The notes beneath the pieces were generated by a model. That model searched no databases. It saw nothing but the letters and a program-made list of their open reading frames with translations, and had not been told where the DNA came from. From an uncultured Anaerolineaceae bacterium (lineage in GTDB: Bacteria; Chloroflexota; Anaerolineae; Anaerolineales; Anaerolineaceae): a stretch of DNA of 64,000 bases. The stretch lies in the NCBI GenBank assembly GCA_964536465.1, contig CAZHXQ010000001.1, positions 6,913-70,912 of the forward strand. The letters run 5' to 3'. Position numbers and translations under genes: made by a program. The stretch's first letter is position 1. Every line of letters begins with the position of its first letter. This document shows, piece by piece, positions 19,529 through 51,414 of this stretch.

Positions 19529-19561
19529 ACAATTTAATCCTTCGCCTGAGCAGATAATAAC

Positions 19562-20740: not shown

Positions 20741-20958
20741 AAAACACCTCCAGGGTGTAATTGTCAACTGCAAGGCTGCATTTTCCATGCCCGGATTATG
20801 GTTTCCTCCGGTAAAAAAAGCCTTGCTGCAAAACAGTCTGCTGACATCGATTCGGTAGTAACTAAATCTACTCGAAAGACCTACACCATTGTACTTGAGG
20901 ATAAGAGCACCACTCACCTTATCACAAAACCTTTCTAAATAGCAGGCGGCAGCAATAA

Positions 20959-20974
20959 GTTTCACGTGAAACAT
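20959..20974. promoter_or_regulatory. Palindromic site GTTTCACGTGAAAC(AT), copy 1 (candidate operator)
   Basis: Perfect 14-bp palindrome inside an 817-bp non-coding region. An identical 16-mer recurs 71 bp away. Confidence 0.4.
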
Positions 20975-26724: not shown

Positions 26725-26752
26725 TTGACATCCGTACCATTTTGCTTATAAT
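26725..26752 (+). promoter_or_regulatory. Consensus sigma70 promoter heading the glycan locus
   Basis: TTGACA (26725-26730), a 16-nt spacer, then TATAAT (26747-26752). The ATG of the regulator lies only 17 nt downstream of the -10, so the leader is very short or absent. Confidence 0.55.
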
Positions 26753-26768
26753 TCAAAAACTGAATTAT

Positions 26769-29086
<2,318 letters not shown>

Positions 29087-29087
29087 C

Positions 29088-30362
29088 ATGGACAAAGACA
29101 CATCAATTGTCGTTCAAGGTATCGGTAAGCGCTATAACATTGGCGCATTCCAGGAGCGCCAGGATACACTGCGTGACCTGATTGTCAACCAGGTGCAAAA
29201 TTTGGGCGGTCTCTTTCGTAAAGGCAAAGGTGGAAGCAAAAAAGATTACATCTGGGCCCTGCGAGATGTCAGCTTTGAAGTCAAACAGGGTCAGGCTTTG
29301 GGGATCATCGGTCGTAACGGCGCAGGAAAGAGCACCTTGCTCAAAGTGCTTTCCCGTGTGACCAACCCGACCGAAGGCTATGGCGAATTACGGGGCAGGG
29401 TTGGTTCTCTCCTGGAGGTTGGCACCGGTTTTCATCCTGAATTGACCGGCAGGGAGAATATTTTCCTTAACGGTGCCATTCTGGGAATGCACAAAAAAGA
29501 AATTGAAGCCCGTTTCGATGAGATTGTCGCTTTTTCTGAAGTCGAAAAATTTATTGACACGCCAGTCAAGCGCTATTCATCGGGTATGTACCTGAGGCTT
29601 GCTTTCGCGGTGGCAGCGCATCTGGAACCAGAAATTCTGGTTGTAGATGAAGTCTTGGCGGTGGGGGACGCGGATTTTCAACGAAAGAGCCTGGGCAAGA
29701 TGGGCGATGTCGCCAGTTCTGGCCGAACGGTTTTGTTCGTGAGTCATAACATGTCAGCCATTTTGCGCCTGACCCAGGAATCCATCGTGCTGGATAAGGG
29801 CCGGGTGTTGATGCGCGCCCCCTCGGCTGAAGCAGTCGATTTTTACCTCAACCGCGGCCTCTCCAAGTTGGGCGAGCGTTATTGGGAAGAGGATGAAATC
29901 CCAGCCTCAAGCAGTCCGTTCAAACCTCTGGCAATCAGAATTGTCGATAAAGATGGCAACGTCTCTGATTCAGTACGCTCGGTCGACCCCATCACGATTG
30001 AAATTGACTATGAACTCAGCGATGATATCACAGGTCTGCGCGTAGGTTACTATCTGTTGACGCCCAGGGGGGAGCCGGTTTTTACCAGCTTCGACACTGA
30101 CTCCGAAGAATTGTTCCGTGAGTATGCCGGCAGGGCCAAGGGTGTTTATGCAAGCCGTTGTGTTATCCCTGCCAATACATTAAACGAAGGTCGTTTTGTG
30201 CTGGGTATGAACGCCAGCTCTTACCGCATTAAACGTTATTTCCAGGACGATCAGGCGCTCAGCTTCACGGTTGATGCCAGTGGTGCCCCAGGTACCCAAT
30301 GGCCAGAGCCGAGACCTGGCGCAGTCAGGCCTGCTTTAGACTGGACAATTAACGAACGGTGA
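29088..30362 (+). CDS. wzt: Polysaccharide export ABC ATPase with a C-terminal extra (carbohydrate-binding-type) domain
   Basis: Walker A GRNGAGKST, signature YSSGMYLRLAFA and Walker B ILVVDEVL. About 170 further residues follow the NBD, as in the Wzt proteins that recognise capped O-polysaccharides. Confidence 0.85.
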   Translation: MDKDTSIVVQGIGKRYNIGAFQERQDTLRDLIVNQVQNLGGLFRKGKGGSKKDYIWALRDVSFEVKQGQALGIIGRNGAGKSTLLKVLSRVTNPTEGYGELRGRVGSLLEVGTGFHPELTGRENIFLNGAILGMHKKEIEARFDEIVAFSEVEKFIDTPVKRYSSGMYLRLAFAVAAHLEPEILVVDEVLAVGDADFQRKSLGKMGDVASSGRTVLFVSHNMSAILRLTQESIVLDKGRVLMRAPSAEAVDFYLNRGLSKLGERYWEEDEIPASSSPFKPLAIRIVDKDGNVSDSVRSVDPITIEIDYELSDDITGLRVGYYLLTPRGEPVFTSFDTDSEELFREYAGRAKGVYASRCVIPANTLNEGRFVLGMNASSYRIKRYFQDDQALSFTVDASGAPGTQWPEPRPGAVRPALDWTINER

Positions 30363-32014
30363 GTCCTATGAGCGCGAAAATTAAAAATTTTCTTGGTGAA
30401 CTGCCCCTGACTGTTGAAGCCTATTGGGCGATGCACGGCAGGAACAAACCTTTGCTGGCACACTATCAGCTTGATAGTTTGAAGGAAGTGCTGCCAGAAG
30501 CCGTCAGAGATGTTCAGCGGTACCAGCGAAAAGCGCAAAAATCGCGCAAAATTTGCATTTTTGCCACGCTGCATTACTGGATCGAGCAGTCGATGTTGGT
30601 TGCGCTTGCCCTGGCAGGGCAAGGTCACCGGGTGACCTTCTCCTGGTTGCCCTACGCCGACTGGGATAAAGAAATCAGCCGCTTCGATCTGCGCCGGCAA
30701 GATTTATATACTTTGGATGCACTCAAGCCAGCTGCTCAAGTAATGCGCATAGATAGCCTTCTGGCGCACAGCCTGTCTGCCGGCAAGCGACCCCAGCTGA
30801 CAACCGAGCTACGTGAAATCGTTGATCAGGTTTCTGACTACGATACGCAATATACGCTGCAAATCGAAGAAACCGATCTTTCCAGCCCACTCTACCAATT
30901 GCGTCAACAACGCAACGGTCAGGCCGCGCTGGCAATTTTCGATTGGCTGCAAAAAGAAAAGCCAGATTTGTTGATTATCCCGAACGGAACCATCCTCGAA
31001 ATGGGCGTTGCTTACCAAATCGCCCGCTCACAGGGAATTGAGACAATAACCTTCGAATTTGCCGACCAGCAGGAACGCATCTGGCTGGCGCAAGATGACG
31101 AAATTATGCAGCATAACACCTCAGATCTGTGGAATCAGCTTGGCGAACAACCTTTGCCGCAAAAAGCCAGGTATGCATTGATGAGTTTATTTGGCGCTCG
31201 CAAAAATGCCCGCCTATGGGGTAACTTTGCCCGCCAATGGCAGCAAAAAGAGAGCCAAGGCGGCGCCAGCGTCCGCGACAGACTCAATTTGGATTCGCGA
31301 CCGCTCGCGCTGTTGGCCACCAACGTTTTAGGTGACAGCCTCACCCTCGGCAGGCAGCGCATTACCGCTACCATGGCAGAAATGATCGTCAAGACCATCG
31401 GCTACTTTGCTCGCCACCCGCAGTTGCAGCTGGTGGTGCGCGTTCATCCTGGCGAGCTAAAAACCCACGGCACTTCAATGGTCGAGGTGATCGAACAGGC
31501 ATACCCCGCCCTGCCAGACAACATTCGCATCATCCGACCGGAAGATAAAACTAACACTTACGATCTGATGGAAATCGCTGACTTTGGGTTGGTTTACACA
31601 ACCACCGTTGGAATGGAGATGACTATGAACGGTCTGCCAGTGATCGTCACAGGTAAGACCCATTATGCCGGCAAAGGCTTCACCCTTGATCCGCAGAGCT
31701 GGCAGGAATATGAGCAGATGCTCGACCGTGTCAGCGAGAATCCCAAATCTGCCAGACTGACCCCAGAGCAAATTGAAAAGGCCTGGATGTATGCTTATTT
31801 GTTCTTTTTTGAATTTTCTTTGCCTTTTCCCTGGCATATCCTTTGGCTAGAAGAAGACTTCAAAAAACGACCCATAGGTTACGTCTTGTCCGATGAAGGT
31901 CAGCAGAGGTATGGTCAGACCTTTGATTATCTGGTTGGTAAGCCGCTTGACTGGGAGGCTCGGGGTCTTGCCAGGCTGGAAACATTGCCAATTGACGAGG
32001 AGATCTCCCTATGA
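30359..32014 (+). CDS. KpsC/KpsS-like (Capsule_synth-type, GT-B) putative ulosonic-acid transferase
   Basis: 551 aa. VRVHPGE ... GLVYTTTVGMEMTMNGLPVIV resembles the HP and S/T-x-G-x-E-A motifs of capsule beta-Kdo transferases. Paralog of 46421..48043. Confidence 0.55.
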   Translation: MSPMSAKIKNFLGELPLTVEAYWAMHGRNKPLLAHYQLDSLKEVLPEAVRDVQRYQRKAQKSRKICIFATLHYWIEQSMLVALALAGQGHRVTFSWLPYADWDKEISRFDLRRQDLYTLDALKPAAQVMRIDSLLAHSLSAGKRPQLTTELREIVDQVSDYDTQYTLQIEETDLSSPLYQLRQQRNGQAALAIFDWLQKEKPDLLIIPNGTILEMGVAYQIARSQGIETITFEFADQQERIWLAQDDEIMQHNTSDLWNQLGEQPLPQKARYALMSLFGARKNARLWGNFARQWQQKESQGGASVRDRLNLDSRPLALLATNVLGDSLTLGRQRITATMAEMIVKTIGYFARHPQLQLVVRVHPGELKTHGTSMVEVIEQAYPALPDNIRIIRPEDKTNTYDLMEIADFGLVYTTTVGMEMTMNGLPVIVTGKTHYAGKGFTLDPQSWQEYEQMLDRVSENPKSARLTPEQIEKAWMYAYLFFFEFSLPFPWHILWLEEDFKKRPIGYVLSDEGQQRYGQTFDYLVGKPLDWEARGLARLETLPIDEEISL

Positions 32015-32904
32015 ACCAGGATTCGGTCAAGCACGAAATCGGTCAGTTCTATGACGAAATCGGCTGGCAACTAGAGGCAGAAGGCGTATACCAAAACGCT
32101 CGTTATGAAGACCTGCGTCCGGTATCCGCAGAATATATTCACAAATGCCACATGCGTGTCAAACGCTATCTGGCTCCCAGCGGCAAGTACCTGCTGGACG
32201 GCGGATCCGGGCCGGTGCAATATGACGAATACCTGACCTATTCTGAAGGGTACCAGTACAGAGTATGTATGGACCTGTCGCTGGTAGCTTTAGTGGAGGC
32301 TCGCAAACGTCTGGGTGAGAAGGGCATCTATATCAATGCTGATATCGCCAACTTGCCCTTCCGTTCGGATGTTTTCGATGGCATCGTCTCCTTGCACACC
32401 ATCCACCACGTTCCGATCGAAGAAAAAGTTGGTGTCTACCAAGGGCTGCACCGTTGCCTGAAACCTGGCCGTACAATGGTTACAGTGGATGGTTGGTCAG
32501 AAGTGCCATTAGCCAAACCGATGCAGTTCCTAATGCGCGTAGCTAACAGATTGCGCCGCTGGACAGGCAAGGAAGCTGCCGCTATGCCAGACGGATTTTC
32601 CGCCAGCCAGGCGAATATGCAAGAAAAAAAGCCTGATCAGGAACCGGTTGGGACTTTCGTGCTGAAAACCTCAGCCCGGTGGTTTCACAGCGTGATGAAA
32701 GGCATCTTGCCTTATGAAATTCGCGTCTGGCGCAGTGTTTCGGTAAGATTCCTGCGCTCAGTTATCCAGCCAGAATGGGCTGGGCGCTTCTGGTTAAAAC
32801 TTTTGTATCGCCTGGAAGAATGGTTTCCGCATTATTTTGGTGAAAACGGGCAATACCCGCTCATAATCATTTCAAAAGAGAACGCAGGTAGCGCTAAGGA
32901 GTAA
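32011..32904 (+). CDS. Class I SAM-dependent methyltransferase
   Basis: Motif I LLDGGSGPVQY, then post-I and motif II (DGIVSLHTIHHV, LKPGR). Confidence 0.8.
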   Translation: MNQDSVKHEIGQFYDEIGWQLEAEGVYQNARYEDLRPVSAEYIHKCHMRVKRYLAPSGKYLLDGGSGPVQYDEYLTYSEGYQYRVCMDLSLVALVEARKRLGEKGIYINADIANLPFRSDVFDGIVSLHTIHHVPIEEKVGVYQGLHRCLKPGRTMVTVDGWSEVPLAKPMQFLMRVANRLRRWTGKEAAAMPDGFSASQANMQEKKPDQEPVGTFVLKTSARWFHSVMKGILPYEIRVWRSVSVRFLRSVIQPEWAGRFWLKLLYRLEEWFPHYFGENGQYPLIIISKENAGSAKE

Positions 32905-32906
32905 GT

Positions 32907-33917
32907 ATGGACTGGCAAGATAAGGTCGTTTTGGTAACGGGGGGAACAGGATCCTTCGGTAAGAAATTTATTCGCATTTTGCTGGATGAATATAACCCGG
33001 CTAAAGTGATTGTTTATAGCCGCGATGAGCTCAAACAACACGATATGCAGACGACGGGCGGTTTCAACGACCCCCGAATACGTTATTTTATCGGCGATGT
33101 ACGCGACAAAGAGCGTCTGATCAGGGCCATGTATGGTGTCAACATTGTGGTGCATTCCGCAGCGCTTAAACAGGTTCCGGCCTGTGAATACAACCCAATG
33201 GAAGCGATTAAGACGAACATCCTCGGCTCCGCCAACGTTATTGACGCTGCTATTGAGAACGGGGTCGAAAAAGTGCTGGCGCTGTCGACTGATAAAGCTG
33301 TCAACCCCATCAATCTTTACGGTGCCACCAAGCTGGCGGCTGAGAAACTGATGGTGCAGAGCAATGCCTATGCCGGCGGGCGCAAAACCCGCATTTCGTG
33401 CACTCGTTACGGCAATGTGGTTGGCTCGCGCGGATCGGTCGTTCCGCTTTTCATCAGTCAGCGCCCTACTGGCGTCCTGACCATCACGGATGAACGAATG
33501 ACCCGTTTCTGGATGTCGCTTGAACAAGGCGTGCGCTTCGTGATCAGCTGCATTGAGCAAATGCAAGGAGGCGAAGTCTTTATCCCTAAGATTCCCAGCA
33601 TGAAAATGACGGACCTGGCCAAAGCAATGGCACCTGAGGCCGAAATCCGAATTATCGGCATTCGCCCCGGCGAGAAATTGCACGAAAGTCTGATCTCAGA
33701 AGACGAAGCCCGCACTACTATTGAGCTCCCTGATATGTATGTTGTTCAGCCCGCCGGCGCGGATCTTTGGTTTGGCCGAGCCTGGCAAGAAAAGGGCCAA
33801 CCTGTCCCTGATGGCTTCGTCTACAATAGTGGCACCAATTCTGATTGGCTGGATGTAGAAGGCATTATGGCAATCATCAAACCGATCGAAGAAGAACTGG
33901 CGGAGGCCAGAAAATAA
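32907..33917 (+). CDS. pseB: UDP-N-acetylglucosamine 4,6-dehydratase (inverting), PseB/FlaA1-type
   Basis: VLVTGGTGSFGKKF, YSRDELKQHDM, RYFIGDVRD, STDKAVNPINLYGATKLAAEKL, RYGNVVGSRGSVVP and IPSMKMTDLAKAM are near-identical in pattern to recalled PseB. The Tyr in YGATK distinguishes it from CapE/FnlA, which have MGxSK. Confidence 0.85.
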   Translation: MDWQDKVVLVTGGTGSFGKKFIRILLDEYNPAKVIVYSRDELKQHDMQTTGGFNDPRIRYFIGDVRDKERLIRAMYGVNIVVHSAALKQVPACEYNPMEAIKTNILGSANVIDAAIENGVEKVLALSTDKAVNPINLYGATKLAAEKLMVQSNAYAGGRKTRISCTRYGNVVGSRGSVVPLFISQRPTGVLTITDERMTRFWMSLEQGVRFVISCIEQMQGGEVFIPKIPSMKMTDLAKAMAPEAEIRIIGIRPGEKLHESLISEDEARTTIELPDMYVVQPAGADLWFGRAWQEKGQPVPDGFVYNSGTNSDWLDVEGIMAIIKPIEEELAEARK

Positions 33918-33918
33918 A

Positions 33919-34839
33919 ATGACCCGCTTGCTGATCACCGGCGTGAGTGGATTGCTGGGTATCAACCTGGCGCTTGAGGCTGTCGGGGCGGGCCACGAAG
34001 TAGTTGGTTGGACTCACAGCCGTTCTTTGAAGGGTGTGCCTTTCGAGCAGGAGACCGTCTGCTTGGAAGACCTTGAGGTTCTGCCTGTGGCACTTCAGAG
34101 AGCCCGCCCGGAGGCGCTCATCCATTGCGCCGCGATTGCCAACCTGGATGAAGCGGAACAAAATCCCCAGCACACTTTTTTGGTTAACGCCCAGGCACCT
34201 GGCGTGTTAGCGCGTGCCTCAAAGGAAGCAGGTATCCCTTTTGTCCAAATTTCCACCGACGCGGTCTTTGACGGCAGTAAGGGTAACTACAACGAAGAAG
34301 ACCCGCCGAACCCACAAAACACCTACGCGCAATCAAAACTGGCTGGAGAACAGGCTGTTCGGAATGAATATCCGGAGGCGCTGGTGGCCAGGGTCGTTTT
34401 TTATGGTTGGTCGCTCAGCGGCAAGCGCAGCCTGGCGGAGTTCTTTTTTAATAATCTCAGCCAGGGCAAGCAGGTCAAGGGCTTCACTGACTCGATCTTC
34501 AGCCCCCTCTACGCGCGAGATTTGGCCGAACTGCTCCTGGAAGCCCTCTCGAAAAATCTGCGGGGAACCTACCATTTCTTTTCCAGAGAGAGTTTGAGCA
34601 AATATGATTTTGGCATGGCCATGGCGGATCGCTTCGGTTTAGATCAAAACCTGATCACAGCAGTAAAAACCGCCCAGGGCAACTTGAATATCCCCCGTTC
34701 GCTCAATCTCAGTGCAAGCAGCGCTAAACTCTGTACAGCGCTTGGCCATGAAATTCCGGGTGTGGTCGAGGGACTGGAGCGAATGTTTGCAGACTGTCAG
34801 CACGGTCTGCGCAAACGCCTGGCAGCTTTTTTGGCATAA
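33919..34839 (+). CDS. RmlD-like NAD(P)-dependent sugar 4-ketoreductase
   Basis: LITGVSGLLG, CAAIANLDEAE, STDAVFDG and YAQSKLAGEQ match the RmlD substrate-binding-domain family. No rmlA, rmlB or rmlC lies nearby. Confidence 0.75.
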   Translation: MTRLLITGVSGLLGINLALEAVGAGHEVVGWTHSRSLKGVPFEQETVCLEDLEVLPVALQRARPEALIHCAAIANLDEAEQNPQHTFLVNAQAPGVLARASKEAGIPFVQISTDAVFDGSKGNYNEEDPPNPQNTYAQSKLAGEQAVRNEYPEALVARVVFYGWSLSGKRSLAEFFFNNLSQGKQVKGFTDSIFSPLYARDLAELLLEALSKNLRGTYHFFSRESLSKYDFGMAMADRFGLDQNLITAVKTAQGNLNIPRSLNLSASSAKLCTALGHEIPGVVEGLERMFADCQHGLRKRLAAFLA

Positions 34840-34850
34840 TAGGAGAAAAT

Positions 34851-35918
34851 ATGGAACTCAAAATTGGCAAGCACCTGATCGGTGACAAACATCCTACATA
34901 CTTTATCGCGGATATCGCCGCCAATCATGACGGCAGCCTGGAACGCGCACTGCATCTTATCCACCTGGCCGCTCAAGCAGGAGCCAATGCCGCTAAGTTC
35001 CAAAACTTCCGCGGGGCAGAGATTGTTTCCGATTACGGCTTCAATCACATGAATGCCCAGGTCTCTCACCAGGCTAATTGGAAAAAGAGCGTGACCCAAG
35101 TCTATGATGACGCCTCTATACCCTTTAACTGGACGCCGATCCTCAAGCGGGAGTGCGACCAGGCTGGGATTGACTATTTCTCTTCCCCCTATGACTTTGA
35201 AGCCACAGATATGCTCGACTCCTACGTGCCCGCTTATAAAATCGGCTCAGGCGATATCACCTGGATGGAAAATTGCCTGCGCATGGCCGAAAAAGGCAAA
35301 CCGGTACTGCTGGCAACAGGCGCTTCCCATATTGGCGAAGTCCAGCGAGCAGTAGAAGCCATCCTGGCGGTTAACCCAAAATTGATTTTAATGCAGTGCA
35401 ATACCAATTACACAGCTGCTGATGGTAACTTCGACAACATCCATCTGAATGTGCTCAAAACCTACCATCAGATCTGGCCGGAGCTGATTTTAGGCCTCAG
35501 CGACCATACTCACGGTCATGCTACCGTGCTGGGTGCGGTCGCCCTGGGTGCCCGTGTAATAGAAAAACATTTCACTGACGATAACGATCGCGAGGGGCCG
35601 GACCATGCCTTTGCCATGAACCCGCAAAGCTGGGCAGAAATGGTGCGTAACACCCGCCAACTGGAACGCGCACTTGGTTCTGGCAATAAATTTGTAACTG
35701 ACAATGAAAAAGAAACTGTGGTTGTGCAACGCCGCTGCCTGAGGGCTGGACGGGACATACAAACCGGTGAGAGGCTGACCCGTGAGATGATTGCTGTGCT
35801 GCGCCCGGCCACCCCCGGTGCGATTGAGCCCCACGAAGTCGACAGGGTGGTTGGTCTTAAAGCGCTCAGAGATATCACGCGTGGGCAGGAACTGCGCTGG
35901 ACGCAGTTAGGCGATTAA
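34851..35918 (+). CDS. Nonulosonic acid synthase (NeuB/PseI/LegI family) with a C-terminal SAF domain
   Basis: PTYFIADIAANHDGSLERALHLIHLAAQAGANAAKFQNF, SSPYD, YKIGSGD, SDHT, IEKHFT, and a C-terminal SAF-like segment (RRCLRAGRDIQTGERLTREMIAVLRP). Confidence 0.85.
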   Translation: MELKIGKHLIGDKHPTYFIADIAANHDGSLERALHLIHLAAQAGANAAKFQNFRGAEIVSDYGFNHMNAQVSHQANWKKSVTQVYDDASIPFNWTPILKRECDQAGIDYFSSPYDFEATDMLDSYVPAYKIGSGDITWMENCLRMAEKGKPVLLATGASHIGEVQRAVEAILAVNPKLILMQCNTNYTAADGNFDNIHLNVLKTYHQIWPELILGLSDHTHGHATVLGAVALGARVIEKHFTDDNDREGPDHAFAMNPQSWAEMVRNTRQLERALGSGNKFVTDNEKETVVVQRRCLRAGRDIQTGERLTREMIAVLRPATPGAIEPHEVDRVVGLKALRDITRGQELRWTQLGD

Positions 35919-35921
35919 CCT

Positions 35922-37022
35922 ATGCGAATAATGTACTTGACCCGTTCAGATTCTGTTCATGATCAGCGTTTCATGCAGACGCTGGCTGAAAGTGAGTTTG
36001 AGGCTTTTGTCTGGCGCTTACTTTCGGGTGATTACCCTACCCCTGAAGGAGTGACAACTTTAGATTGGCAGGGGATTGGCGGAGGTTTGCAAGCCTGGAA
36101 TTTGCCTTTCGCCCAGAGAAAGTTAGAGCAGGCCATTCGAGAGGTCCAACCCGATCTGATTCACGCCGGCCCGTTGCACGACCTGGCCTTTTTGGCTGCT
36201 AAGACAGGCTTTGCCAATCTTCTCTCGATGAGTTGGGGGTTCGATTTGATGAAAGATGTGCGGGTCGATAAGCTGACCGAACACCGCACCCGATTTGCCC
36301 TGCAGCGTTCCAAAGGTTTGATAACCGACGCCTACTGCTCTGCAGAGGCAGCCGCCGGTCTTGGTTTTCCCCGTGAAGATATCTGCATATTCCCCTGGGG
36401 TGTCAACTTGCAGCACTTCTCTCCTGCCAACGCGCGCAAGAGCGGTCTCGCCTGGCGGCAAAAAATGGGTTGGGAGGATAATTTGGTCCTGTTGTGCCTG
36501 CGCAGTTGGGAACCCAACTACGGGGTCGGCACGCTCCTGGCTGCTTTTGAAAAAGCGGCAGCTGAAAAGCAGAACTTGCGTCTGATATTACTGGGCGATG
36601 GCAGCCTGCATGACGAATACTTGCGAGTGTTAGAGGATGAGAGTTTCAAAGACAAAGTTTTTATCGGCGGTCGGGTTCCAAACCAGGAACTGGTCAAGTT
36701 TTATGGCGCTGCCGATGTGTATGTCACTCCCAGTCATGTGGACGGTTCTTCCGTCTCGCTGATGGAAGCCCTGGCTTGCGGGTTACCCACAATCGCCTCG
36801 GACATACCGGCTAACCTCGAATGGGTGTACCATAATGAAAACGGCTGGATTTTCCCTGACAATAATATTAACGCTCTCAGGGAGACCATTCTGAACTGCC
36901 ATCCAAACTTAGAAATGGCAGAACGCGCCAGGGCAACTGCTGAAAGCAAAGCCGACTGGCAAAAAAACCGGCAAATTTTGTTGGACTGTTACCGACAATT
37001 GCTGCCCAATGAAGGAAAATAA
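35922..37022 (+). CDS. Glycosyltransferase family 4 (GT-B)
   Basis: C-terminal ADVYVTPSHVDGSSVSLMEALACGLPTIASDIPANLEWV is the E-x7-E GT4 signature. Confidence 0.8.
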   Translation: MRIMYLTRSDSVHDQRFMQTLAESEFEAFVWRLLSGDYPTPEGVTTLDWQGIGGGLQAWNLPFAQRKLEQAIREVQPDLIHAGPLHDLAFLAAKTGFANLLSMSWGFDLMKDVRVDKLTEHRTRFALQRSKGLITDAYCSAEAAAGLGFPREDICIFPWGVNLQHFSPANARKSGLAWRQKMGWEDNLVLLCLRSWEPNYGVGTLLAAFEKAAAEKQNLRLILLGDGSLHDEYLRVLEDESFKDKVFIGGRVPNQELVKFYGAADVYVTPSHVDGSSVSLMEALACGLPTIASDIPANLEWVYHNENGWIFPDNNINALRETILNCHPNLEMAERARATAESKADWQKNRQILLDCYRQLLPNEGK

Positions 37023-37023
37023 A

Positions 37024-37656
37024 ATGAACAAAAAATTAATTTTGATTTTTGGTGTGCTGTTACTGGTTGTGACAGCCTGTAATTTCCCGGTTGGCAAAAA
37101 GACCGCCACCCCTATGCCCACCCCGACTCCGGATACGAGCATGCAGCTCTACTATGGCCAAGGTATGCAGATCATGCTGCCACCCAGTTACATTGCAGAA
37201 GACATCAAAACACAGCTCCCTAATATCATTGAAACGCTCACCAATCTGGTTGGCGACAGTGAAGGTTTTGCGCGTGACCTGATAAGGGAAATTGAAGGGA
37301 ATGTCGCCTGGTATGGTTTCGATGGTGATACGCCAGCGGTCTATCCGACCCGTTTGATCGTCATTAAGAATAAATCACTGGCGGCACTTCCGGTGGGTAT
37401 CATTACGCTGGGGCTGGAGCAGGTGCTGGGACGGAATCAGACCGAAGTGGACCGGGATTCACTGACCCTAAACGGACGCGATGTGACCCGCTTCACCTAT
37501 TCCAAAGACAGCAATGCCTTTGCCGCCTACCTCTTTAAAGAGCAGCACCGCCTGTGGATCAGTGTCTTCATAACTACCCCCGCGAATATGGCTGTTTCTT
37601 TGACCGACTACAACACCAGCATCGGCTCTATGCAAATTGACCCGATAGCGGAGTAA
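37024..37656 (+). CDS. Small lipoprotein with a Pro/Thr-rich linker, function unknown
   Basis: Start at ATG 37024. Lipobox LVVTAC, then the TATPMPTPTPDTS linker and a globular domain of about 170 aa. Confidence 0.6.
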   Translation: MNKKLILIFGVLLLVVTACNFPVGKKTATPMPTPTPDTSMQLYYGQGMQIMLPPSYIAEDIKTQLPNIIETLTNLVGDSEGFARDLIREIEGNVAWYGFDGDTPAVYPTRLIVIKNKSLAALPVGIITLGLEQVLGRNQTEVDRDSLTLNGRDVTRFTYSKDSNAFAAYLFKEQHRLWISVFITTPANMAVSLTDYNTSIGSMQIDPIAE

Positions 37657-37670
37657 TGATAAGGTAAAGC

Positions 37671-39374
37671 TTGAAAAAAGTTGCAATCATCCAAGCCAGG
37701 TTAGGGTCGAGCCGCCTGCCAGGGAAGGTTCTCTTGGAGGTGGCAGGCGAGCCGATGCTCGCGCGAGTGTTCGCGCGGGTGCGCCAGGCCAGGCTAATTG
37801 ATGAAATCATGGTTGCCACGACTAGCGATTTAACTGACGATCCACTTGTGCAGTATTGCCAAGACGCCGACATTCCTTGCTATCGAGGAGATCAATTTGA
37901 CGTACTGGACCGCTTTTATCAGGCAGCCCGGCAAGCGCAGGCAGATGTGATTGTGCGCATCACAGCCGACTGCCCTATGATCGCGCCCGAAGAGATCGAT
38001 CGGGTTGTGCAGGCTTATCTTTCCAGCGGAGCTGATTTCGCTGCTAACCGCCTCCCTCCGCCATTTGAACGCACCACACCGATTGGTATGGATACAGAGG
38101 TCTGCTCAATGAAAGCCTTGGAAACAGCCTGGCGAGAGGCAGAGCAGCCCTACCAGCGCGAACACGTTATGCCCTATCTTTATGATACTGAGGGGCGTTT
38201 CAAAGTACAGGTTGTTGACCTGGAGCCCGCCCACGGGAACCTGCGTTTCACAGTAGACACCGCAGAAGATCTGCACCTGGCAAATCTGATTTATGCTGCT
38301 TTTGAAGGTCGGAACGATTTTAGCCTGGAAGAACTGCTGGCAGAAAACGAACGCCATCCCGAGTGGCAGCAGCAAGTTGCCCTGGTCCACCATAAAGACC
38401 TCTATGAAACCGACCAGAGGGCTAAACCAGCCAGCAAACAAAAGGACGAGGATCCACTTCAAGCAACACAGAATCAACCTATGCGCAACGAAGCGCCTGT
38501 TATCTCTTGCCCGTTATGCGGCAGCGATAGAATCAAAGACTTTGAGCGGGTCGAATCGTTTGGCTACTCTCTTGAGTATCTCATCTGTCAGGATTGCGGT
38601 TTCGTTTTCCAAAACCCACAAACCAGCCAGGTGGCCAGTCCCGATTTCTATCAGCAGACCTACCGAAGGATCTATCAGGCCAGCGAACAGCCAACTAAAA
38701 AAGATCTTTTCCAGCAAACCCAGCGCGCCAACAACCAGGTCGAATGGCTGAAAAGTCTCAGTGTGGAAAAATTCGAGAATGTTCTCGACATTGGCGCCTC
38801 CTCCGGTTTACTTCTGGAAACTTTCGCGAGGCGATTTGATGCAAATGTTGTCGGCGTGGAACCTGGCGATGCTTACCGCGCAATGGCAGAAACCAAAGGG
38901 CTCTGCATGTATAACTCCATCGACACGTTGATTGCTTCCCACCCAAAGCGCTTTGAACTGGTCACGCTCATGCACGTTCTGGAACATCTTGAAAATCCCC
39001 GGCAGGTATTGGAGCAGATTCGGAAAGAGCTGCTCAACCAAGAGGGACTGCTTTTATTAGAAGTGCCCAATTTCTATGGGCATGATTGTTACGAGCTGGC
39101 GCATCTCTCCTGCTTTACTGAGCACACGCTGCTCGAAATGCTCCGGCAGGCGGGTTTCGAACCGGTCGCTTTCCGCAAGCACGGCATGCCGCGCTCGGAA
39201 ATTTTGCCGCTTTATCTGACCCTTCTTGCCAGACCCGCTGCGGAAATCGACAGAAGATCACCCAGGCCGGAAAAGGGCGTCAGGTTGAAAAGACGCCTGG
39301 CTATGCTCAAACGAAAAATTCTGACCCGGCTCAATCCGGGCAGCGCATGGCTGCCTGTGGAGGGTAAATTGTGA
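37671..39374 (+). CDS. Fusion of an SpsF/PseF-like cytidylyltransferase with a zinc-ribbon and a class I SAM methyltransferase
   Basis: N-terminal AIIQARLGSSRLPGKVL and RITADCPMI (CTP_transf_3 type). The middle has CPLCGS...CQDCG. The C-terminal part has VLDIGASSGLL, LVTLMHVLEHLENP and LLLEVPN. TTG start. Confidence 0.75.
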   Translation: MKKVAIIQARLGSSRLPGKVLLEVAGEPMLARVFARVRQARLIDEIMVATTSDLTDDPLVQYCQDADIPCYRGDQFDVLDRFYQAARQAQADVIVRITADCPMIAPEEIDRVVQAYLSSGADFAANRLPPPFERTTPIGMDTEVCSMKALETAWREAEQPYQREHVMPYLYDTEGRFKVQVVDLEPAHGNLRFTVDTAEDLHLANLIYAAFEGRNDFSLEELLAENERHPEWQQQVALVHHKDLYETDQRAKPASKQKDEDPLQATQNQPMRNEAPVISCPLCGSDRIKDFERVESFGYSLEYLICQDCGFVFQNPQTSQVASPDFYQQTYRRIYQASEQPTKKDLFQQTQRANNQVEWLKSLSVEKFENVLDIGASSGLLLETFARRFDANVVGVEPGDAYRAMAETKGLCMYNSIDTLIASHPKRFELVTLMHVLEHLENPRQVLEQIRKELLNQEGLLLLEVPNFYGHDCYELAHLSCFTEHTLLEMLRQAGFEPVAFRKHGMPRSEILPLYLTLLARPAAEIDRRSPRPEKGVRLKRRLAMLKRKILTRLNPGSAWLPVEGKL

Positions 39375-40321
39375 CCCCCTCTCTGACACTTTTCACTGCT
39401 CCCAAGGCTTTCACTGACCCTCATATCAGCCTGATTCAACACAATGCTTTTGGTTCCTGGCAGGCTTTGGGAGACTCGGTCAGCGTGGTTGTGGTTGGCA
39501 ATGAAGAAGGAATTGGTGAGGCCGCCAAAGAATATGGTTTCTCTCATCAACCCGATGTTCGCTTGAACCAACTTGGCACGCCTCTGATCAGTTCTATTTT
39601 CGAGTTCGGACGGGAGGAAAACGAAAGCCCCTTCTTGGCTTATGTCAACGCTGACATTATTCTATTCCCCGAAATTCTTGATGTGATCCGAGCTGCGGGC
39701 AGTCAGGCTGACCAATTTCTCCTAATCGGTCAGCGCTGGGATTTGGAGGTGCTTGAAGCGCTTACTTTCAAAGGTGATTGGATTCCTTCGCTCAAGCAGC
39801 GCATGCGCAATGAGGGGCAGCTTCACAAGCGCACTGGCAGTGATTATTTTATATATCCCCGCTCTTGTTTCCGGCAGGTCCCGAATTTCAGCGTGGGCCG
39901 GGCTGGTTGGGATAACTGGATGATCTATCAGGCACGGAGGCAGGGTTGGTTGGCAATTGATTGCAGCGCGGACCTGGATATCCTCCATCAGGAGCACGAC
40001 TACAGGCATCTACCAGACGGAAAGCCTCACTACCGGCTGCCTGAAACCGGCGAAAACATCCGGCTCGCCGGTGGAAGAAGAACAACTTTTCTGTTAGACG
40101 ATTCTTCGCATCGTCTGGTCGATGGAAAACTCGAGAGGATACCACTGACCTGGACTCGCTTTTGGCGTGAATTTCAAAACGCTCCCTTGCTAAAATTTGG
40201 TAATTACGCACTGACCCAGACACTCTTCAGTCTCCTGCACCCCCGCAAGGCGAAAATTGAAAAGGTAAAACAAGCCGAGATGGACAGCAAACTGGCAGAA
40301 TCTGGATTGAGAGGGAGCTGA
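39371..40321 (+). CDS. Hypothetical protein, possibly a GT-A-like glycosyltransferase
   Basis: 316 aa with a GTG start overlapping the upstream stop. FLAYVNADIILFPE and GRAGWDNWM suggest a nucleotide-sugar enzyme, but the call is weak. Confidence 0.4.
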   Translation: MTPSLTLFTAPKAFTDPHISLIQHNAFGSWQALGDSVSVVVVGNEEGIGEAAKEYGFSHQPDVRLNQLGTPLISSIFEFGREENESPFLAYVNADIILFPEILDVIRAAGSQADQFLLIGQRWDLEVLEALTFKGDWIPSLKQRMRNEGQLHKRTGSDYFIYPRSCFRQVPNFSVGRAGWDNWMIYQARRQGWLAIDCSADLDILHQEHDYRHLPDGKPHYRLPETGENIRLAGGRRTTFLLDDSSHRLVDGKLERIPLTWTRFWREFQNAPLLKFGNYALTQTLFSLLHPRKAKIEKVKQAEMDSKLAESGLRGS

Positions 40322-41343
40322 TGGCCCGTTTAGGTACCAACCCTTCCCGAGGACAACAACTTGAGTTCACCCCGCCGCGTGTGACTGTAGCTGTTTTAGT
40401 CTACGAGCCCCACCGTTCTGGTTACTTTCAACATCGACTGGATGTCACCAAGCTGACGATTGACAGCATCCTTAAAAACACCCCCGAACCTTTTGAATTA
40501 TTGGTTTTTGACAATGGTTCCTGCGATGCCATGACCGATTACCTACGTGATCTGAATCAGGCAGGCAGCATCGACACGCTGGTCCTATCTGGTCAAAATA
40601 TTGGCAAGTTGAACGCGCTCTGGCGCATTACCAATCTCGCCCAGGGTGAGCTGATCGCCTACAGTGACGATGACGTTTATCACATGTCAGGCTGGCTGCC
40701 GAAGCACTTGGAAATTCTCGACACCTATCCTGGTGTCGGGGCAATCACTGGCTTTTATATCAAACAGCGTGTTGTGATGAGCTCTGAAAGTACGCTCGCA
40801 TGGGTTGCAAAATATGAAAAAGAACACCCCGGCCTGGTCCAGAGAGGCAATTTGATTCCGCGAAAGTGGGAGGAAGAATACATGAACAATTCCGGCCGCA
40901 CCCAGGAGCGCTATCAGGGAGAAGTGCAGGGTGTGGACGATATCATTGTCGATTACCAGGGTGTTAAAGCCTGGGTGTCCGCTCATCATTTTCAGGTTCT
41001 GACACCCAAGAAGATCTTGCTGGAGGTTCTCCCCGAGATGTTGGATGAGGGATGGAGCAACCAGATGATGGGCCGAATGGTGGAGATGGACGATCGCATA
41101 GACGCCAAAGGTTACCTGCGCCTGACCACGTATGAACAGACCATGCGCCTGCTGGGCAACGCGATTGACGATGAAGTAAAAGCCCTGGCTGCCGGCGATG
41201 GCATCAGCACCCATGCTGCTCTGGCTGAAAATGCACCTGAAAAATCAGCTGGTCTTTGGAATAACGAACTGATCCAAAAAGTGGCCCAACGTTTGCTGAA
41301 CTGGCTCTATCGTGGTTTGCACCAAAACAGGAGGAGTGAATGA
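40321..41343 (+). CDS. Glycosyltransferase family 2
   Basis: VTVAVLVYE..., LLVFDNGSCDAMTDYL and AYSDDDVY (the DxD motif). TGATG start/stop overlap. Confidence 0.75.
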   Translation: MARLGTNPSRGQQLEFTPPRVTVAVLVYEPHRSGYFQHRLDVTKLTIDSILKNTPEPFELLVFDNGSCDAMTDYLRDLNQAGSIDTLVLSGQNIGKLNALWRITNLAQGELIAYSDDDVYHMSGWLPKHLEILDTYPGVGAITGFYIKQRVVMSSESTLAWVAKYEKEHPGLVQRGNLIPRKWEEEYMNNSGRTQERYQGEVQGVDDIIVDYQGVKAWVSAHHFQVLTPKKILLEVLPEMLDEGWSNQMMGRMVEMDDRIDAKGYLRLTTYEQTMRLLGNAIDDEVKALAAGDGISTHAALAENAPEKSAGLWNNELIQKVAQRLLNWLYRGLHQNRRSE

Positions 41344-42341
41344 AATTTCTGATCGCTGGTTTAGGTTCGATTGGGCGCAGACACCTGCGCAATCTGAAAG
41401 CGCTTGGGCAGACTGACCTGCTGCTCTACCGCACCCATCAGGCTACTCTTCCAGACACGGATCTGGTGGGTTACCCCACATACACGGATTTGGATGAGGC
41501 TCTGGCAGAAAAACCAGATGGAGTGATCGTCTCGAATCCTACCGCTTTGCATTTGGAAGTTGCGACTGCCGCGGCTAAAGCAGGCGCGGCTCTGCTGATT
41601 GAAAAGCCCGTCTCAGACAGCCTGCTCGGTATTCGCGAATTGCAGGAGGCTCTTGACGAAGCAGGCAAGCCCGCTTTAATCGGCTTTCATTTGCGCTATC
41701 ATCCAGTTTTACGACAGATAAAAGCGTTAATCGAGTCTGACCAGCTGGGCAAGCCGTTTAAGGCGCATGCTCATTGGGGAGAATACTTACCCGGCTGGCA
41801 CCCCTGGGAAGACTACCGCCATTCCTACGCGGCCAGAGCCGACCTGGGTGGCGGCGCTCTCAATACGCTTTCCCATCCAATTGATTATCTGCGCTGGATG
41901 ATGGGAGAGGTGCGCGCGCTGTCTGCCAGCCTGGATAACCTCAGTCAACTGGAACTCGATGTTGAAGATAACGTGGAATTGCTCCTTAAATTCCACTCGG
42001 GCTCAATGGCCACCGTCCATCTGGATTATTACCAGCGCCCTCCTTCCCATACACTGGAGATCATATTTGAGCGAGGTCGCATCCGTTGGGACAATGGTTC
42101 GGGCTGTGTGGTGATTGAAAATGTGGAAATAGGCGAGAAAGTCGTTGATACACTTTGTCCCCCCGAGGGTTTCAAACGCAACGATATGTTCCTGGCTGAG
42201 ATGGAAGATTTCGTCCAGCTTTGCCGGGGAGAGCGCATTGACCACTGTACGTTAGCTGATGGTAAGCGCGTGCAGAAGATCGTTGAAGTGGCGCGCCAAA
42301 GTTCTTCGCAGAGCAGCTGCTCAGTAAGGCTGCCCTCTTAA
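41340..42341 (+). CDS. Gfo/Idh/MocA-family NAD(P)-dependent oxidoreductase
   Basis: MKFLIAGLGSIGRRHLRNL Rossmann N-terminus, the EKP motif (LLIEKPV), and a C-terminal alpha/beta domain. Confidence 0.85.
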   Translation: MKFLIAGLGSIGRRHLRNLKALGQTDLLLYRTHQATLPDTDLVGYPTYTDLDEALAEKPDGVIVSNPTALHLEVATAAAKAGAALLIEKPVSDSLLGIRELQEALDEAGKPALIGFHLRYHPVLRQIKALIESDQLGKPFKAHAHWGEYLPGWHPWEDYRHSYAARADLGGGALNTLSHPIDYLRWMMGEVRALSASLDNLSQLELDVEDNVELLLKFHSGSMATVHLDYYQRPPSHTLEIIFERGRIRWDNGSGCVVIENVEIGEKVVDTLCPPEGFKRNDMFLAEMEDFVQLCRGERIDHCTLADGKRVQKIVEVARQSSSQSSCSVRLPS

Positions 42342-42389
42342 AAACCGCCTGATGGTAAAATCCAATCCATCAACAGGCAGAAAAAGAAA

Positions 42390-44449: not shown

Positions 44450-44473
44450 ATGCACAAAGGAAACTAAACAAAG

Positions 44474-45535: not shown

Positions 45536-45543
45536 AGGAATTT

Positions 45544-46419: not shown

Positions 46420-46420
46420 G

Positions 46421-48720: not shown

Positions 48721-48721
48721 T

Positions 48722-49702: not shown

Positions 49703-49754
49703 ATGTCTTAACTGATATCTGTGTAAGCGGTAGAACTACGAAGTGAGGAATATT

Positions 49755-50519: not shown

Positions 50520-50528
50520 GTTTTTTAA

Positions 50529-51323: not shown

Positions 51324-51414
51324 AAACCCTCTCAGCGCTGCTGGGGCGTTGGGTTACCCGCCAGATTCCCGAAAGAACAGAAACCCCATTTCAAAGTTCA
51401 TATATAATTTGATC

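Follow-up and report, generated by a model that had tools for sequence, protein, structure and literature searches.

To address which sugar is made when a PseB-type dehydratase gene is followed by a reductase gene and a NeuB-family synthase gene with no aminotransferase gene, we analyzed a 64-kb stretch of Anaerolineaceae DNA (the window) that carries such a trio. Nonulosonic acids (sialic, legionaminic, and pseudaminic acid) cap bacterial surfaces and shape phage, immune, and lectin recognition. Three biosynthetic routes to them are textbook knowledge, and genome surveys sort NeuB homologues into those three.

The PseB-reductase-NeuB trio and its module

The first-pass annotation had described a PseB-type dehydratase, an RmlD-like reductase, and a SAF-containing NeuB homologue separated by gaps of 1 and 11 nt, and this observation was confirmed. 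The three open reading frames occupy positions 32907 to 33917, 33919 to 34839, and 34851 to 35918 of the + strand. Direct reading of the junctions revealed that the TAA stop codon of the upstream methyltransferase gene is followed after 2 nt by the PseB ATG, the PseB TAA after 1 nt by the reductase ATG, the reductase TAA by 11 nt containing AGGAG and then the NeuB ATG, and the NeuB TAA after 3 nt by the ATG of a GT4 gene.

The dehydratase scored 497.7 bits against the model for PseB, the inverting UDP-GlcNAc 4,6-dehydratase (TIGR03589, cut-off 407.75), and contains the motifs GGTGSFG, STDK, and YGATK. An FnlA/CapE/WbvB-type assignment was rejected, as the protein reached 282 bits against the FnlA model TIGR04130 (cut-off 730), carries YGATK, and is not accompanied by a 2-epimerase in the module; FnlA-type dehydratases have MxxxK in place of YxxxK. 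On these grounds, the WbvB/WbvR-type alternative that had been offered for the locus is disfavored. The second protein belongs to the RmlD family (PF04321, 197.9 bits), falls under the cut-off of TIGR01214 (190.8 versus 224 bits), and retains an intact catalytic T/Y/K triad (STD, YAQSK) as well as a GVSGLLG motif; its best PDB relatives are dTDP-4-dehydrorhamnose reductases, and we annotated it as a putative NAD(P)H-dependent 4-ketoreductase. The third protein combines NeuB (PF03102, 230.8 bits) and SAF (PF08666, 33.9 bits) domains and failed the cut-offs of both PseI (TIGR03586, 240.4 versus 340.25 bits) and NeuB_NnaB, the NeuB/LegI model (TIGR03569, 267.6 versus 399.65 bits). Identification as PseI was rejected since the synthase is under this cut-off and lies outside the clade with the annotated Bacillus and Azospirillum PseI, and a Neu5Ac/legionaminic acid pathway was rejected since the synthase is under the TIGR03569 cut-off and the window holds no NeuC/LegG-type 2-epimerase.

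We scanned all open reading frames of at least 150 aa in the window with Pfam and searched the 64 kb by six-frame tblastn using PseC, a second Azospirillum DegT-family aminotransferase, PseG, and PseH as references. Neither search revealed a sugar aminotransferase, PseH-type acetyltransferase, PseG, or NeuC in the 64 kb, even at E<1, which bears out the reported absence of aminotransferase, N-acetyltransferase, and PseG and supplies, for the window, the proposed search for pseC, pseH, and pseG homologues. No window reading frame of this size matched PF01041 or PseC, no GNAT or hexapeptide transferase was present in the cluster, PseH gave no tblastn match in the 64 kb, and neither TIGR03590 nor PF04101 (PseG) matched in the window, where the GT4 gene occupies that position. 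By Pfam, there was no Epimerase_2 protein among the window reading frames and no NeuC, AGE, or phosphatase in the module.

The trio had been noted in isolation; it stands as described, but a larger conserved module is built around it, with a regulator, Wzm/Wzt, a KpsC-like transferase, two methyltransferases, and a CMP-transferase, all on the + strand. At its head, in a position shared with loci L001, L007, and L009, is a winged-helix (HTH_24/MarR-like) regulator (26742 to 27302; HTH_24, 44.8 bits). A GalE-like NAD-dependent sugar epimerase/dehydratase family protein follows (27253 to 28254, with the start set after the L001 gene call; PF01370, 188.6 bits), which is 70 to 83% identical to its counterparts at the same position in L007 and L009. 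Next are a Wzm-type ABC-2 permease (28196 to 29086; PF01061, 82.2 bits) and a Wzt-type ABC ATPase with a C-terminal glycan-binding Wzt_C domain (29088 to 30362; PF00005, 76.4 bits; PF14524, 37.7 bits), the latter 61 to 83% identical among Chloroflexota loci. The KpsC-like (Capsule_synth) protein (30368 to 32014; PF05159, 24.1 bits, GA 20) is a candidate CMP-ulosonic-acid transferase: a profile of 20 homologues matched solely KpsC chains in the PDB (6mgd, E=0.001), over a region with the invariant residues R361-x-H363-P364-x-E366. The class I SAM methyltransferase gene upstream of PseB (32011 to 32904; PF08241, 50.7 bits) is translationally coupled to PseB and kept in most Chloroflexota loci.

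Downstream of the synthase lies the GT4 (GT-B) protein (35922 to 37022; PF00534, 101.8 bits), a candidate UDP-6-deoxy-HexNAc hydrolase or an ordinary glycosyltransferase. It is followed by a lipoprotein of unassigned function (37024 to 37656) that has a signal peptide with the lipobox LVVTAC, matched no Pfam family, and is 32 to 54% identical in L007, L009, and L016. The CMP-transferase is encoded next, at 37755 to 39374, where a single reading frame joins a CMP-sugar synthetase (CTP_transf_3; PF02348, 126.4 bits) to a SAM methyltransferase (PF13489, 60.9 bits); the two parts are separate genes in L007 and L009, and the CTP_transf_3 domain scored 31.3 bits against PseF (TIGR03584, cut-off 205.7). 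A conserved 316-aa protein (39371 to 40321) with 54 invariant columns over 14 homologues has no match in Pfam, NCBIfam, or the PDB and was seen solely in the Chloroflexota version of the module, whose last conserved gene encodes a GT2 glycosyltransferase (40321 to 41343; PF00535, 51.1 bits; 60 to 68% identity in L007 and L009). Because the identical gene order recurs on independent metagenome contigs, in relatives with a reductase just 54 to 55% identical, and in 26 Chloroflexota species representatives among the matches listed, the arrangement of the trio is not due to chance.

The NeuB1 clade and its gene neighborhoods

The phylogenetic placement of the NeuB homologue, which the first-pass annotation had proposed, revealed that the synthase falls together with 60 further sequences (identity 41% or higher) in a separate clade, termed NeuB1 (neighbor-joining bootstrap 98/100), and the bit scores show a gap between this clade and the plateau of general NeuB-family matches. 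The clade extends over at least 12 phyla and one archaeon. Since canonical PseI depends on the C4-NHAc group of its substrate (PMC9245050), it is plausible that a 4-OH substrate is served by a synthase clade of its own.

Inspection of ±10 kb around each of 80 loci among the matches listed showed that clade members are associated with PseB and with an RmlD-like gene upstream of the synthase. In this listed set, the gene immediately preceding the synthase is RmlD-like at 20/25 loci from Chloroflexota and at 23/30 from elsewhere in the clade, compared with 0/21 outgroup NeuB/PseI loci; where the other Chloroflexota loci extend far enough upstream, reductase and synthase are separated by an accessory gene. 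PseB is found within 6 kb of the synthase in 20/20 Chloroflexota, 21/25 other clade, and 2/17 outgroup loci among the matches listed, and the pattern of upstream RmlD-like gene, PseB, and nearby CTP_transf_3, into which the window fits, in 43/55 clade and 0/21 outgroup loci of the same set. A DegT aminotransferase was present within ±10 kb in none of the 26 Chloroflexota species representatives among the matches listed. As the RmlD-like genes of distant loci are only 24 to 31% identical to the window's reductase and were not separated from true RmlD in a crude tree, their orthology rests on position.

Outside Chloroflexota, the gene content varies. In the acidobacterial locus L042, PseB, the reductase, and NeuB1 are joined by genes for a CMP-transferase and for a PseG equivalog that scores 223.3 bits (cut-off 153.55); DegT, PseH, and GT4 are all absent within ±10 kb. 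The Methylophilaceae locus L053 carries PseB, CMP-transferase, reductase, and NeuB1 followed by WbuX, HisH, WbuZ, and WbuX, with no DegT within ±10 kb, and in Poseidonibacter (L096), WbuX is found immediately after NeuB1; from these amidotransferase genes, an N-acetimidoyl trideoxy sugar is predicted. The order PseB-reductase-NeuB1-GT4 is kept in the archaeon (L040) and in a Wzx/Wzy-type Acidobacteria locus (Bryobacterales, L048). A DegT gene occurs in 16/31 non-Chloroflexi clade loci among the matches listed, so strict absence of an amine at C7 does not hold for the entire clade. These DegT proteins are 31 to 35% identical to PseC, score below the PseC and LegC cut-offs (222 versus 423 bits for PseC), and are not PseC orthologues. 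Loci free of DegT were also found in Acidobacteriota, Methylophilaceae, Psychrobacter, Parvibaculum, Caulobacterales, and on a Maritalea plasmid.

Separately, the window has a GFO/IDH/MocA oxidoreductase gene downstream of the cassette. A gene 37 to 50% identical to it is found inside the L040 and L048 cassettes, and the same type stands beside PseC in the canonical Pse loci L073 and L094.

Proposed pathway and competing explanations

We regard the cassette as a genuine and probably undescribed variant of nonulosonic acid biosynthesis, and we consider it reasonably likely that the trio is central to a non-aminating branch of pseudaminic-acid-type synthesis. The product, its C4 and C7 configuration, and the hydrolase step are what we infer from the genes. 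PseB, assigned here by family, would carry out its established reaction, from UDP-GlcNAc to UDP-2-acetamido-2,6-dideoxy-beta-L-arabino-hex-4-ulose. The RmlD-type enzyme would then use NAD(P)H to reduce the keto group at C4, replacing transamination, and the predicted product is a UDP-2-acetamido-2,6-dideoxy-L-hexose, either 6-deoxy-L-AltNAc or its C4 epimer. Judging from gene context, the likeliest enzyme for UDP removal is the neighboring GT4, which would use water as acceptor and stand in for PseG, and the NeuB1-clade synthase would join the free 6-deoxy-HexNAc with PEP, yielding a 5-acetamido-3,5,9-trideoxy-non-2-ulosonic acid with a hydroxyl at C7. Going by protein family, the CTP_transf_3 domain would form the CMP-sugar, the two methyltransferases probably methylate it, and the KpsC-like transferase probably attaches the sugar to a glycan that would also need the GT2 and the 316-aa protein and would be exported by Wzm/Wzt.

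The gene content of L042 is the exact enzyme set needed by this route. Together with the clade context, L042, with its PseG and no aminotransferase, strengthens the route to the 7-hydroxy, 9-deoxy product that had been predicted, although the 16 loci with a non-PseC DegT restrict its reach: the lineages concerned may make the 7-hydroxy sugar just as an intermediate, or may end with a different product. It had also been suggested that the GT4 takes the PseG role. Since a full-length orthologue (35% identity) directly follows NeuB1 in the archaeon and the Bryobacterales locus, and the gene thus stays with the cassette across domains as predicted, the GT4 is the best candidate for a PseG substitute. 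However, its sequence has no feature marking a hydrolase and resembles an ordinary retaining GT4 (closest PDB entries PimB', BshA, and PglA-type). Most non-Chloroflexi clade loci have neither GT4 nor PseG (±10 kb, among the matches listed).

This resemblance bears on an explanation that we regard as unlikely, in which the role of the dehydratase and reductase ends with a UDP-6-deoxy-HexNAc (L-AltNAc, QuiNAc, or RhaNAc-type), the GT4 adds this sugar directly to a polymer, as in WbvB/WbvR, Pdeg/Preq, or WreV/WreQ, and NeuB uses another aldose. Dehydratase and 4-reductase pairs that make UDP-QuiNAc are established (PMC4514872), the GT4 profile matches retaining GT4s that use UDP-HexNAc, and Fusobacterium nucleatum 25586 is reported to have both 6-deoxy-L-AltNAc and a nonulosonic acid (PMID 28135570); the UDP-sugar could therefore serve both purposes, which would be compatible with the non-aminating route. 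Against direct use, the dehydratase is a PseB equivalog rather than FnlA/WbvB-type with no 2-epimerase, nothing else in the module could supply NeuB1 with a free aldose, the pairing of reductase and synthase genes is particular to the NeuB1 clade, and the PseG hydrolase of L042 is needed only if the free sugar is condensed.

More doubtful still is the idea that the reductase acts at another step, for example on a keto intermediate that the GFO/IDH/MocA enzyme forms from the nonulosonic acid or its CMP form, giving a net epimerization while the C4 keto group of the PseB product is handled otherwise. The related oxidoreductase genes in L040, L048, and the window, and the poor conservation of the RmlD-like genes across the clade, would fit such a role, but the module is complete in L007 and many further Chloroflexota loci that have no GFO gene, the occurrence of this type beside PseC means that it is not tied to the reductase, and PseB is the sole keto-sugar generator beside the reductase, to which it is translationally coupled. 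Least likely, and very improbable, is an ordinary 5,7-diamino (pseudaminic-type) pathway with aminotransferase and acetyltransferase encoded elsewhere in the genome and an accessory reductase: about half of the non-Chloroflexi relatives have a DegT, often with a GNAT, a few kb away within the ±10 kb inspected, but these are not PseC orthologues, the listed Chloroflexota loci lack DegT over the same ±10 kb despite otherwise tight conservation, DegT-less loci also occur outside that phylum, and the synthase is not a PseI.

We also put forward, as a tentative extension with less than even chances, that NeuB1 and its RmlD partner constitute a fourth general nonulosonic acid route (dehydrate, reduce, hydrolyze, condense) in Bacteria and Archaea, that the Anaerolineae product is a methylated 7-hydroxy-9-deoxy sugar in a lineage-wide envelope glycan, that a GT4 fold was recruited as hydrolase in place of PseG, and that elsewhere the 7-hydroxy sugar is a branch point to acetimidoyl or late-aminated derivatives, including the Fusobacterium sugars.

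Relation to known systems

The pseudaminic acid pathway (PseB/C/H/G/I/F in Campylobacter and Helicobacter, with a Pen/Pal variant in Bacillus) shares the first enzyme and the logic from UDP-GlcNAc through a 6-deoxy-L-hexosamine and free sugar to PEP condensation by a NeuB-family enzyme and a CMP-sugar, and L042 even has a true PseG. In contrast to that pathway, the window has an RmlD-type reductase in place of PseC and PseH, a synthase outside the PseI equivalog and clade, and a GT4 where PseG is expected, and the predicted product bears OH instead of NHAc at C7.

For F. nucleatum 25586, a 5-acetimidoyl-3,5,9-trideoxy sugar was reported together with 6-deoxy-L-AltNAc (PMID 28135570, 2017). This fusaminic-type class is the sole reported match to the predicted 5-N-acyl, 7-hydroxy, 9-deoxy product, with which the gene content is consistent, and the companion sugar is the predicted pathway intermediate. 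WbuX-type amidotransferases, as encoded by relatives of the cassette, would make the 5-acetimidoyl group, whereas the window has methyltransferases. The class is known as a chemical structure; the literature searched contained no genes assigned to it, and F. nucleatum was not represented among the 80 loci of the matches listed or among homologues of a 'Fusobacteriaceae' sequence. If correct, the proposed pathway would be a fourth, amine-free branch in at least 12 phyla, occurring in abundant digester and sludge Anaerolineae, Campylobacterota flagellin-glycosylation islands, and one archaeon, and would allow genes to be assigned for the first time to the 3,5,9-trideoxy class, so far known only from F. 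nucleatum LPS. The pathway, which would involve four or five soluble enzymes, would provide enzymes for 7-hydroxy pseudaminic acid analogues and improve the prediction of surface sugars from genomes.

Systems for UDP-L-RhaNAc/L-QuiNAc (WbvB/WbvR/WbvD) and UDP-L-FucNAc (FnlA/B/C, CapE/F/G) likewise use a PseB-like 4,6-dehydratase and then a 4-keto reductase, but the dehydratase is FnlA-type, a 2-epimerase follows, and there is no link to NeuB or a CMP-transferase. Those for UDP-D-QuiNAc (Pdeg/Preq in B. cereus, WreV/WreQ in R. etli, WbpM/WbpV) perform the same 4,6-dehydration and C4 reduction of UDP-GlcNAc; they differ in that C5 keeps its configuration during dehydration, the reductases are from other SDR subfamilies (PMC4514872), and glycosyltransferases use the product directly. 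Finally, the ABC-transporter-dependent glycan systems with Wzm/Wzt(Wzt_C) and beta-Kdo transferases of the KpsC/KpsS type share with the module the export pair with a Wzt carbohydrate-binding domain, KpsC-like transferases with the HP motif, and methyltransferases that could make a terminal cap. The KpsC similarity is weak by both the Pfam and PDB scores given above, the host is a member of the Chloroflexota, and a CMP-nonulosonic acid would take the place of CMP-Kdo as donor.

The coupled PseB-reductase-synthase trio and the amination genes

Direct reading of the window revealed three plus-strand ORFs at 32907-33917, 33919-34839 and 34851-35918, as reported in the first-pass annotation, together with its gaps of 1 and 11 nt. 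The stop codon of the upstream methyltransferase precedes the ATG of the first ORF by 2 nt, and the stop of the first ORF precedes the ATG of the second by 1 nt; 11 nt that include an AGGAG separate the second stop from the third ATG, and 3 nt separate the third stop from the ATG of a GT4 glycosyltransferase gene (35922-37022). The three ORFs are translationally coupled. The first protein, previously called PseB-type, scored 497.7 bits against the NCBI PseB equivalog (cut-off 407.75) and 282 bits on the FnlA model, far under its cut-off of 730, and contains the motifs GGTGSFG, STDK and YGATK. The second is RmlD-like, as had been proposed: it matched RmlD_sub_bind over its full length (PF04321, 197.9 bits), fell narrowly below the RmlD equivalog cut-off (190.8 versus 224 bits), and carries a glycine-rich loop and the T/Y/K triad, and its structurally solved relatives are dTDP-4-dehydrorhamnose reductases. 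The third protein, which we call NeuB1, matched both the NeuB and SAF domains, in agreement with its description as a SAF-containing NeuB homologue. It failed the NeuB/LegI model (267.6 bits, cut-off 399.65) and the PseI model (240.4 bits, cut-off 340.25), and is about equidistant from Neisseria meningitidis NeuB, Bacillus subtilis SpsE and a solved PseI.

To look for amination genes, we compared all ORFs of at least 150 aa in the 64 kb with Pfam and performed six-frame tblastn searches using the annotated PseC, PseG and PseH of a Bacillus cereus Pse cluster and, from Azospirillum, one more aminotransferase of the DegT family. Neither approach gave a match to PseC/DegT, PseG or PseH at E<1 in the window, bearing out the earlier statement that the trio lacks an aminotransferase; the sole aminotransferase of the window, a class I/II enzyme at 56316-57500, lies outside the cluster. 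An analogy with Bacillus Pen/Pal, where a second SDR completes the PseB reaction, was excluded because the dehydratase is a full PseB equivalog; in addition, the reductase is not significantly similar to Pal.

The NeuB1 clade and its gene linkage

An exhaustive HMMER search recovered a small set of close representatives of NeuB1 (461 to about 250 bits, 58-42% identity), below which lay a broad plateau of general NeuB-family proteins with 35-39% identity. Scanning one genome per GTDB species yielded at least 57 NeuB1-group loci and at least 23 outgroup loci. In a neighbor-joining tree with 61 group sequences, including the window, a Maritalea plasmid and two Campylobacterota, the NeuB1 group was monophyletic in 98 of 100 bootstraps and included neither the annotated PseI of Bacillus and Azospirillum nor a NeuC-linked NeuB. 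The phylogenetic placement proposed in the first-pass annotation thus puts the synthase in a clade of its own. Beyond Chloroflexota, the matches listed include one Methanomicrobiales archaeon, many Pseudomonadota, and members of Acidobacteriota, Verrucomicrobiota, Myxococcota, Bdellovibrionota, Bacteroidota, Bacillota, Campylobacterota, Patescibacteria and Omnitrophota.

Among the matches listed, the gene immediately upstream of the synthase is RmlD-like in 20 of 25 Chloroflexota and 23 of 30 other clade loci, and in none of 21 outgroup loci. Similarly, a PseB gene (at least 45% identity) was found within 6 kb in 20/20 Chloroflexota and 21/25 other clade loci, compared with 2/17 in the outgroup, again among the matches listed. 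These counts reveal that the reductase-synthase pair is a signature of the clade and no local accident. A tree of the RmlD-like proteins was dropped as orthology evidence, as it was unresolved and placed references for true RmlD within the set.

Where the remaining Chloroflexota loci extend far enough upstream, an accessory gene stands between the RmlD-like gene and the synthase. The genes inserted there in L026, L030, L037, L038 and L039 encode GT-C-like membrane, small membrane, sulfotransferase-, methyltransferase- or GDPD-like proteins, which points to decoration of the sugar or glycan that differs between lineages. The Maritalea myrionectae plasmid NZ_CP021332.1 (L011/L012) carries an O-antigen-type cluster in which no aminotransferase is annotated. 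It combines PseB (58% identity) and a NeuB1-clade synthase (51% identity) with an AGE epimerase, a sialyltransferase, a second NeuB that lacks SAF, an FkbH-like HAD-IIIC protein, DUF4910 and a fusion of CMP-transferase and aldo-keto reductase. Cultured carriers of the locus include Poseidonibacter lekithochrous (CP054052), Psychrobacter sp. Arc29, Neptuniibacter caesariensis MED92, M. myrionectae HL2708#5 and Sulfurimonas sp. (CP093397), and OY969938.1 is one complete Chloroflexota genome with the module.

A candidate amine-free route and its alternatives

The protein families and their linkage are observed; from them we infer the chemistry of a route. PseB would make a 4-keto-6-deoxy-L sugar, the RmlD-type enzyme would reduce it, GT4 (or PseG in the Acidobacteriota locus L042) would release the free sugar, and NeuB1 would condense this with PEP to a 5-acetamido-3,5,9-trideoxy-non-2-ulosonic acid, which a CTP_transf_3 domain could then activate. 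Two methyltransferases, one coupled to PseB and one fused to the CMP-transferase, probably methylate the sugar; the transferase is probably the KpsC-like protein, and Wzm/Wzt would export the product. This scheme is the most economical reading of the PseB, reductase, GT4 and NeuB1 genes.

One informative relative is L042, which combines PseB, the reductase and NeuB1 with a CMP-transferase and a PseG equivalog (223.3 bits, cut-off 153.55), and in which DegT and PseH are absent within ±10 kb. These are exactly the five enzymes that the route first proposed, to a 7-hydroxy, 9-deoxy product, calls for. A hydrolase has a purpose here only where the reduced UDP-sugar is to be released for condensation.

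For the window itself, it had been suggested that GT4 could replace PseG. By sequence, GT4 looks like an ordinary retaining GT4, and a profile search of the PDB returned ordinary GT4 transferases only, with no PseG-like signal. Full-length GT4 orthologues (35% identity) nevertheless follow NeuB1 in the archaeal locus L040, ordered PseB-reductase-NeuB1-GT4-GFO-CMP-transferase-DegT, and in the Bryobacterales locus L048, which has Wza/Wzc-type rather than Wzm/Wzt export. Since GT4 is kept with the sugar genes across domains and export systems, a role in sugar synthesis is more likely than one in polymer assembly. This conservation, and the presence of PseG without GT4 in L042, favor the replacement while falling short of proof; most other clade loci among the matches listed have neither gene.

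Two further loci point to the structure of the product. In L053, on a complete Methylophilaceae chromosome, PseB, CMP-transferase, reductase and NeuB1 are followed by WbuX, HisH, WbuZ and WbuX, with no DegT within ±10 kb. In Poseidonibacter lekithochrous (L096), WbuX lies directly after NeuB1 in a Maf-containing flagellin-glycosylation island, where a Pse-associated methylase adjoins a CMP-transferase. WbuX-type amidotransferases convert N-acetyl to N-acetimidoyl groups, and their position after NeuB1 therefore predicts a 5-acetimidoyl-3,5,9-trideoxy nonulosonic acid. Such a sugar is described in the O-chain of Fusobacterium nucleatum 25586 together with 6-deoxy-L-AltNAc (PMID 28135570), the latter being the predicted intermediate of our pathway. 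No F. nucleatum locus occurred among the genome-scan matches listed or among homologues of the L041 synthase, and our literature search found no gene assignment for the F. nucleatum sugar. L041 is a 3-kb MAG contig titled 'Fusobacteriaceae bacterium'. NCBI lists an identical synthase under Acetoanaerobium sp., and the nearest relatives are Campylobacterota; the taxonomic label of the contig is doubtful. A full-text search of incomplete coverage returned no paper assigning genes to a 3,5,9-trideoxy nonulosonic acid and no description of a PseB-reductase-NeuB route. The proposed PseB-reductase-NeuB1 route is widespread and easily tested, and would link a known sugar to its as yet unassigned genes.

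It is possible that GT4 uses the UDP-6-deoxy-HexNAc directly and that NeuB1 is fed from elsewhere, and both uses of this nucleotide sugar coexist in F. nucleatum. However, direct use leaves NeuB1 without a source of substrate and gives no account of PseG in L042. A pseC/pseH pair elsewhere in the genome is conceivable but hard to square with the non-PseI synthase and with the 26 Chloroflexota loci among the matches listed, all DegT-free within ±10 kb.

Outside Chloroflexota, DegT is carried by 16 of the 31 NeuB1-clade loci among the matches listed and is missing from L042, L053, L054, L055, L063, L072 and the Maritalea plasmid. One type shares about 66% identity between L040 and L048, and a second is 44-64% identical among Campylobacterota-like loci; identity to PseC is only 31-35% for both, and the single one tested falls under the PseC and LegC cut-offs. 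These enzymes could aminate late in the pathway, belong to a second sugar or divert the 4-keto intermediate to another fate. The clade DegT frequently has a GFO/IDH/MocA gene as its neighbor, which is not diagnostic because the same GFO type stands next to PseC in canonical Pse loci (L073, L094). Late amination by GFO and DegT is weakened by this finding and is retained as a possibility.

The surrounding operon and neighboring modules

The source organism, an Anaerolineaceae bacterium (Chloroflexota), inhabits digesters, sludge and landfills. The trio is embedded in a long plus-strand operon, module 1 (26742-41343), which encodes in order a winged-helix regulator, an epimerase, Wzm, Wzt with a Wzt_C domain, a KpsC-like protein, a methyltransferase, PseB, the reductase, NeuB1, GT4, a lipoprotein, a CMP-transferase/methyltransferase fusion, a 316-aa protein and GT2. 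Every gene of module 1 is retained in relatives in which identity of the reductase has dropped to 54-55%. The KpsC-like protein scored 24.1 bits on Pfam Capsule_synth, and its family profile matched KpsC only in the PDB, across a stretch with an invariant R-x-H-P-x-E. The CMP-transferase and methyltransferase share one ORF at 37671-39374, whereas L007, L009 and L016 have them as two neighboring genes, indicating a lineage-specific gene fusion.

The 210-aa protein after GT4 was rejected as an enzyme; it is a lipoprotein (37024-37656, lipobox LVVTAC), conserved in close relatives only. Alignment of 14 Chloroflexota homologues shows 54 invariant columns in the 316-aa protein (39371-40321), with the motif GRAGWDNW and a conserved stretch H-Q-x-H-x-Y-x-H-L-P among its features. 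The protein had no relative in Pfam (E<=1), NCBIfam or a PDB profile search, and its single-sequence AlphaFold (AF2) model was unusable (pLDDT 34). Run X13, labelled metagenomic RNA-Seq, was discarded as transcription evidence: with a depth that stays level at about 65 across 19.5 kb (27000-46500), and with a 72-kb contig, it has the behavior of DNA and is silent on transcription.

A second ulosonic-acid module follows at 41340-46419. It is present in L009 and absent from L007, and is therefore separable. It encodes a GFO/IDH/MocA oxidoreductase, an SDR, a radical SAM/SPASM protein, a NeuB homologue without a SAF domain, and a CMP-transferase fused to a KdsC/KDN-9-P-phosphatase-like HAD (PseF 161 bits, KdsC 113 bits), and resembles a pathway that runs via a phosphorylated, Kdn- or Neu-9-P-like intermediate. 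Further downstream, 46421-53144 encodes another KpsC-like protein and holds a third CTP_transf_3 gene (47944-48720). Two GT2 genes also lie there, along with genes for a D-2-hydroxyacid dehydrogenase, an SDR and a short protein of MptE-like (Maf) type (50529-51323). The three CMP-transferases of the cluster suggest up to three CMP-activated acids. On the minus strand, 6-8 kb upstream of the cluster (18719-20974), a BNR/Asp-box repeat protein with faint sialidase-like and sortilin-like matches and a polysaccharide deacetylase may turn over or modify the glycan.
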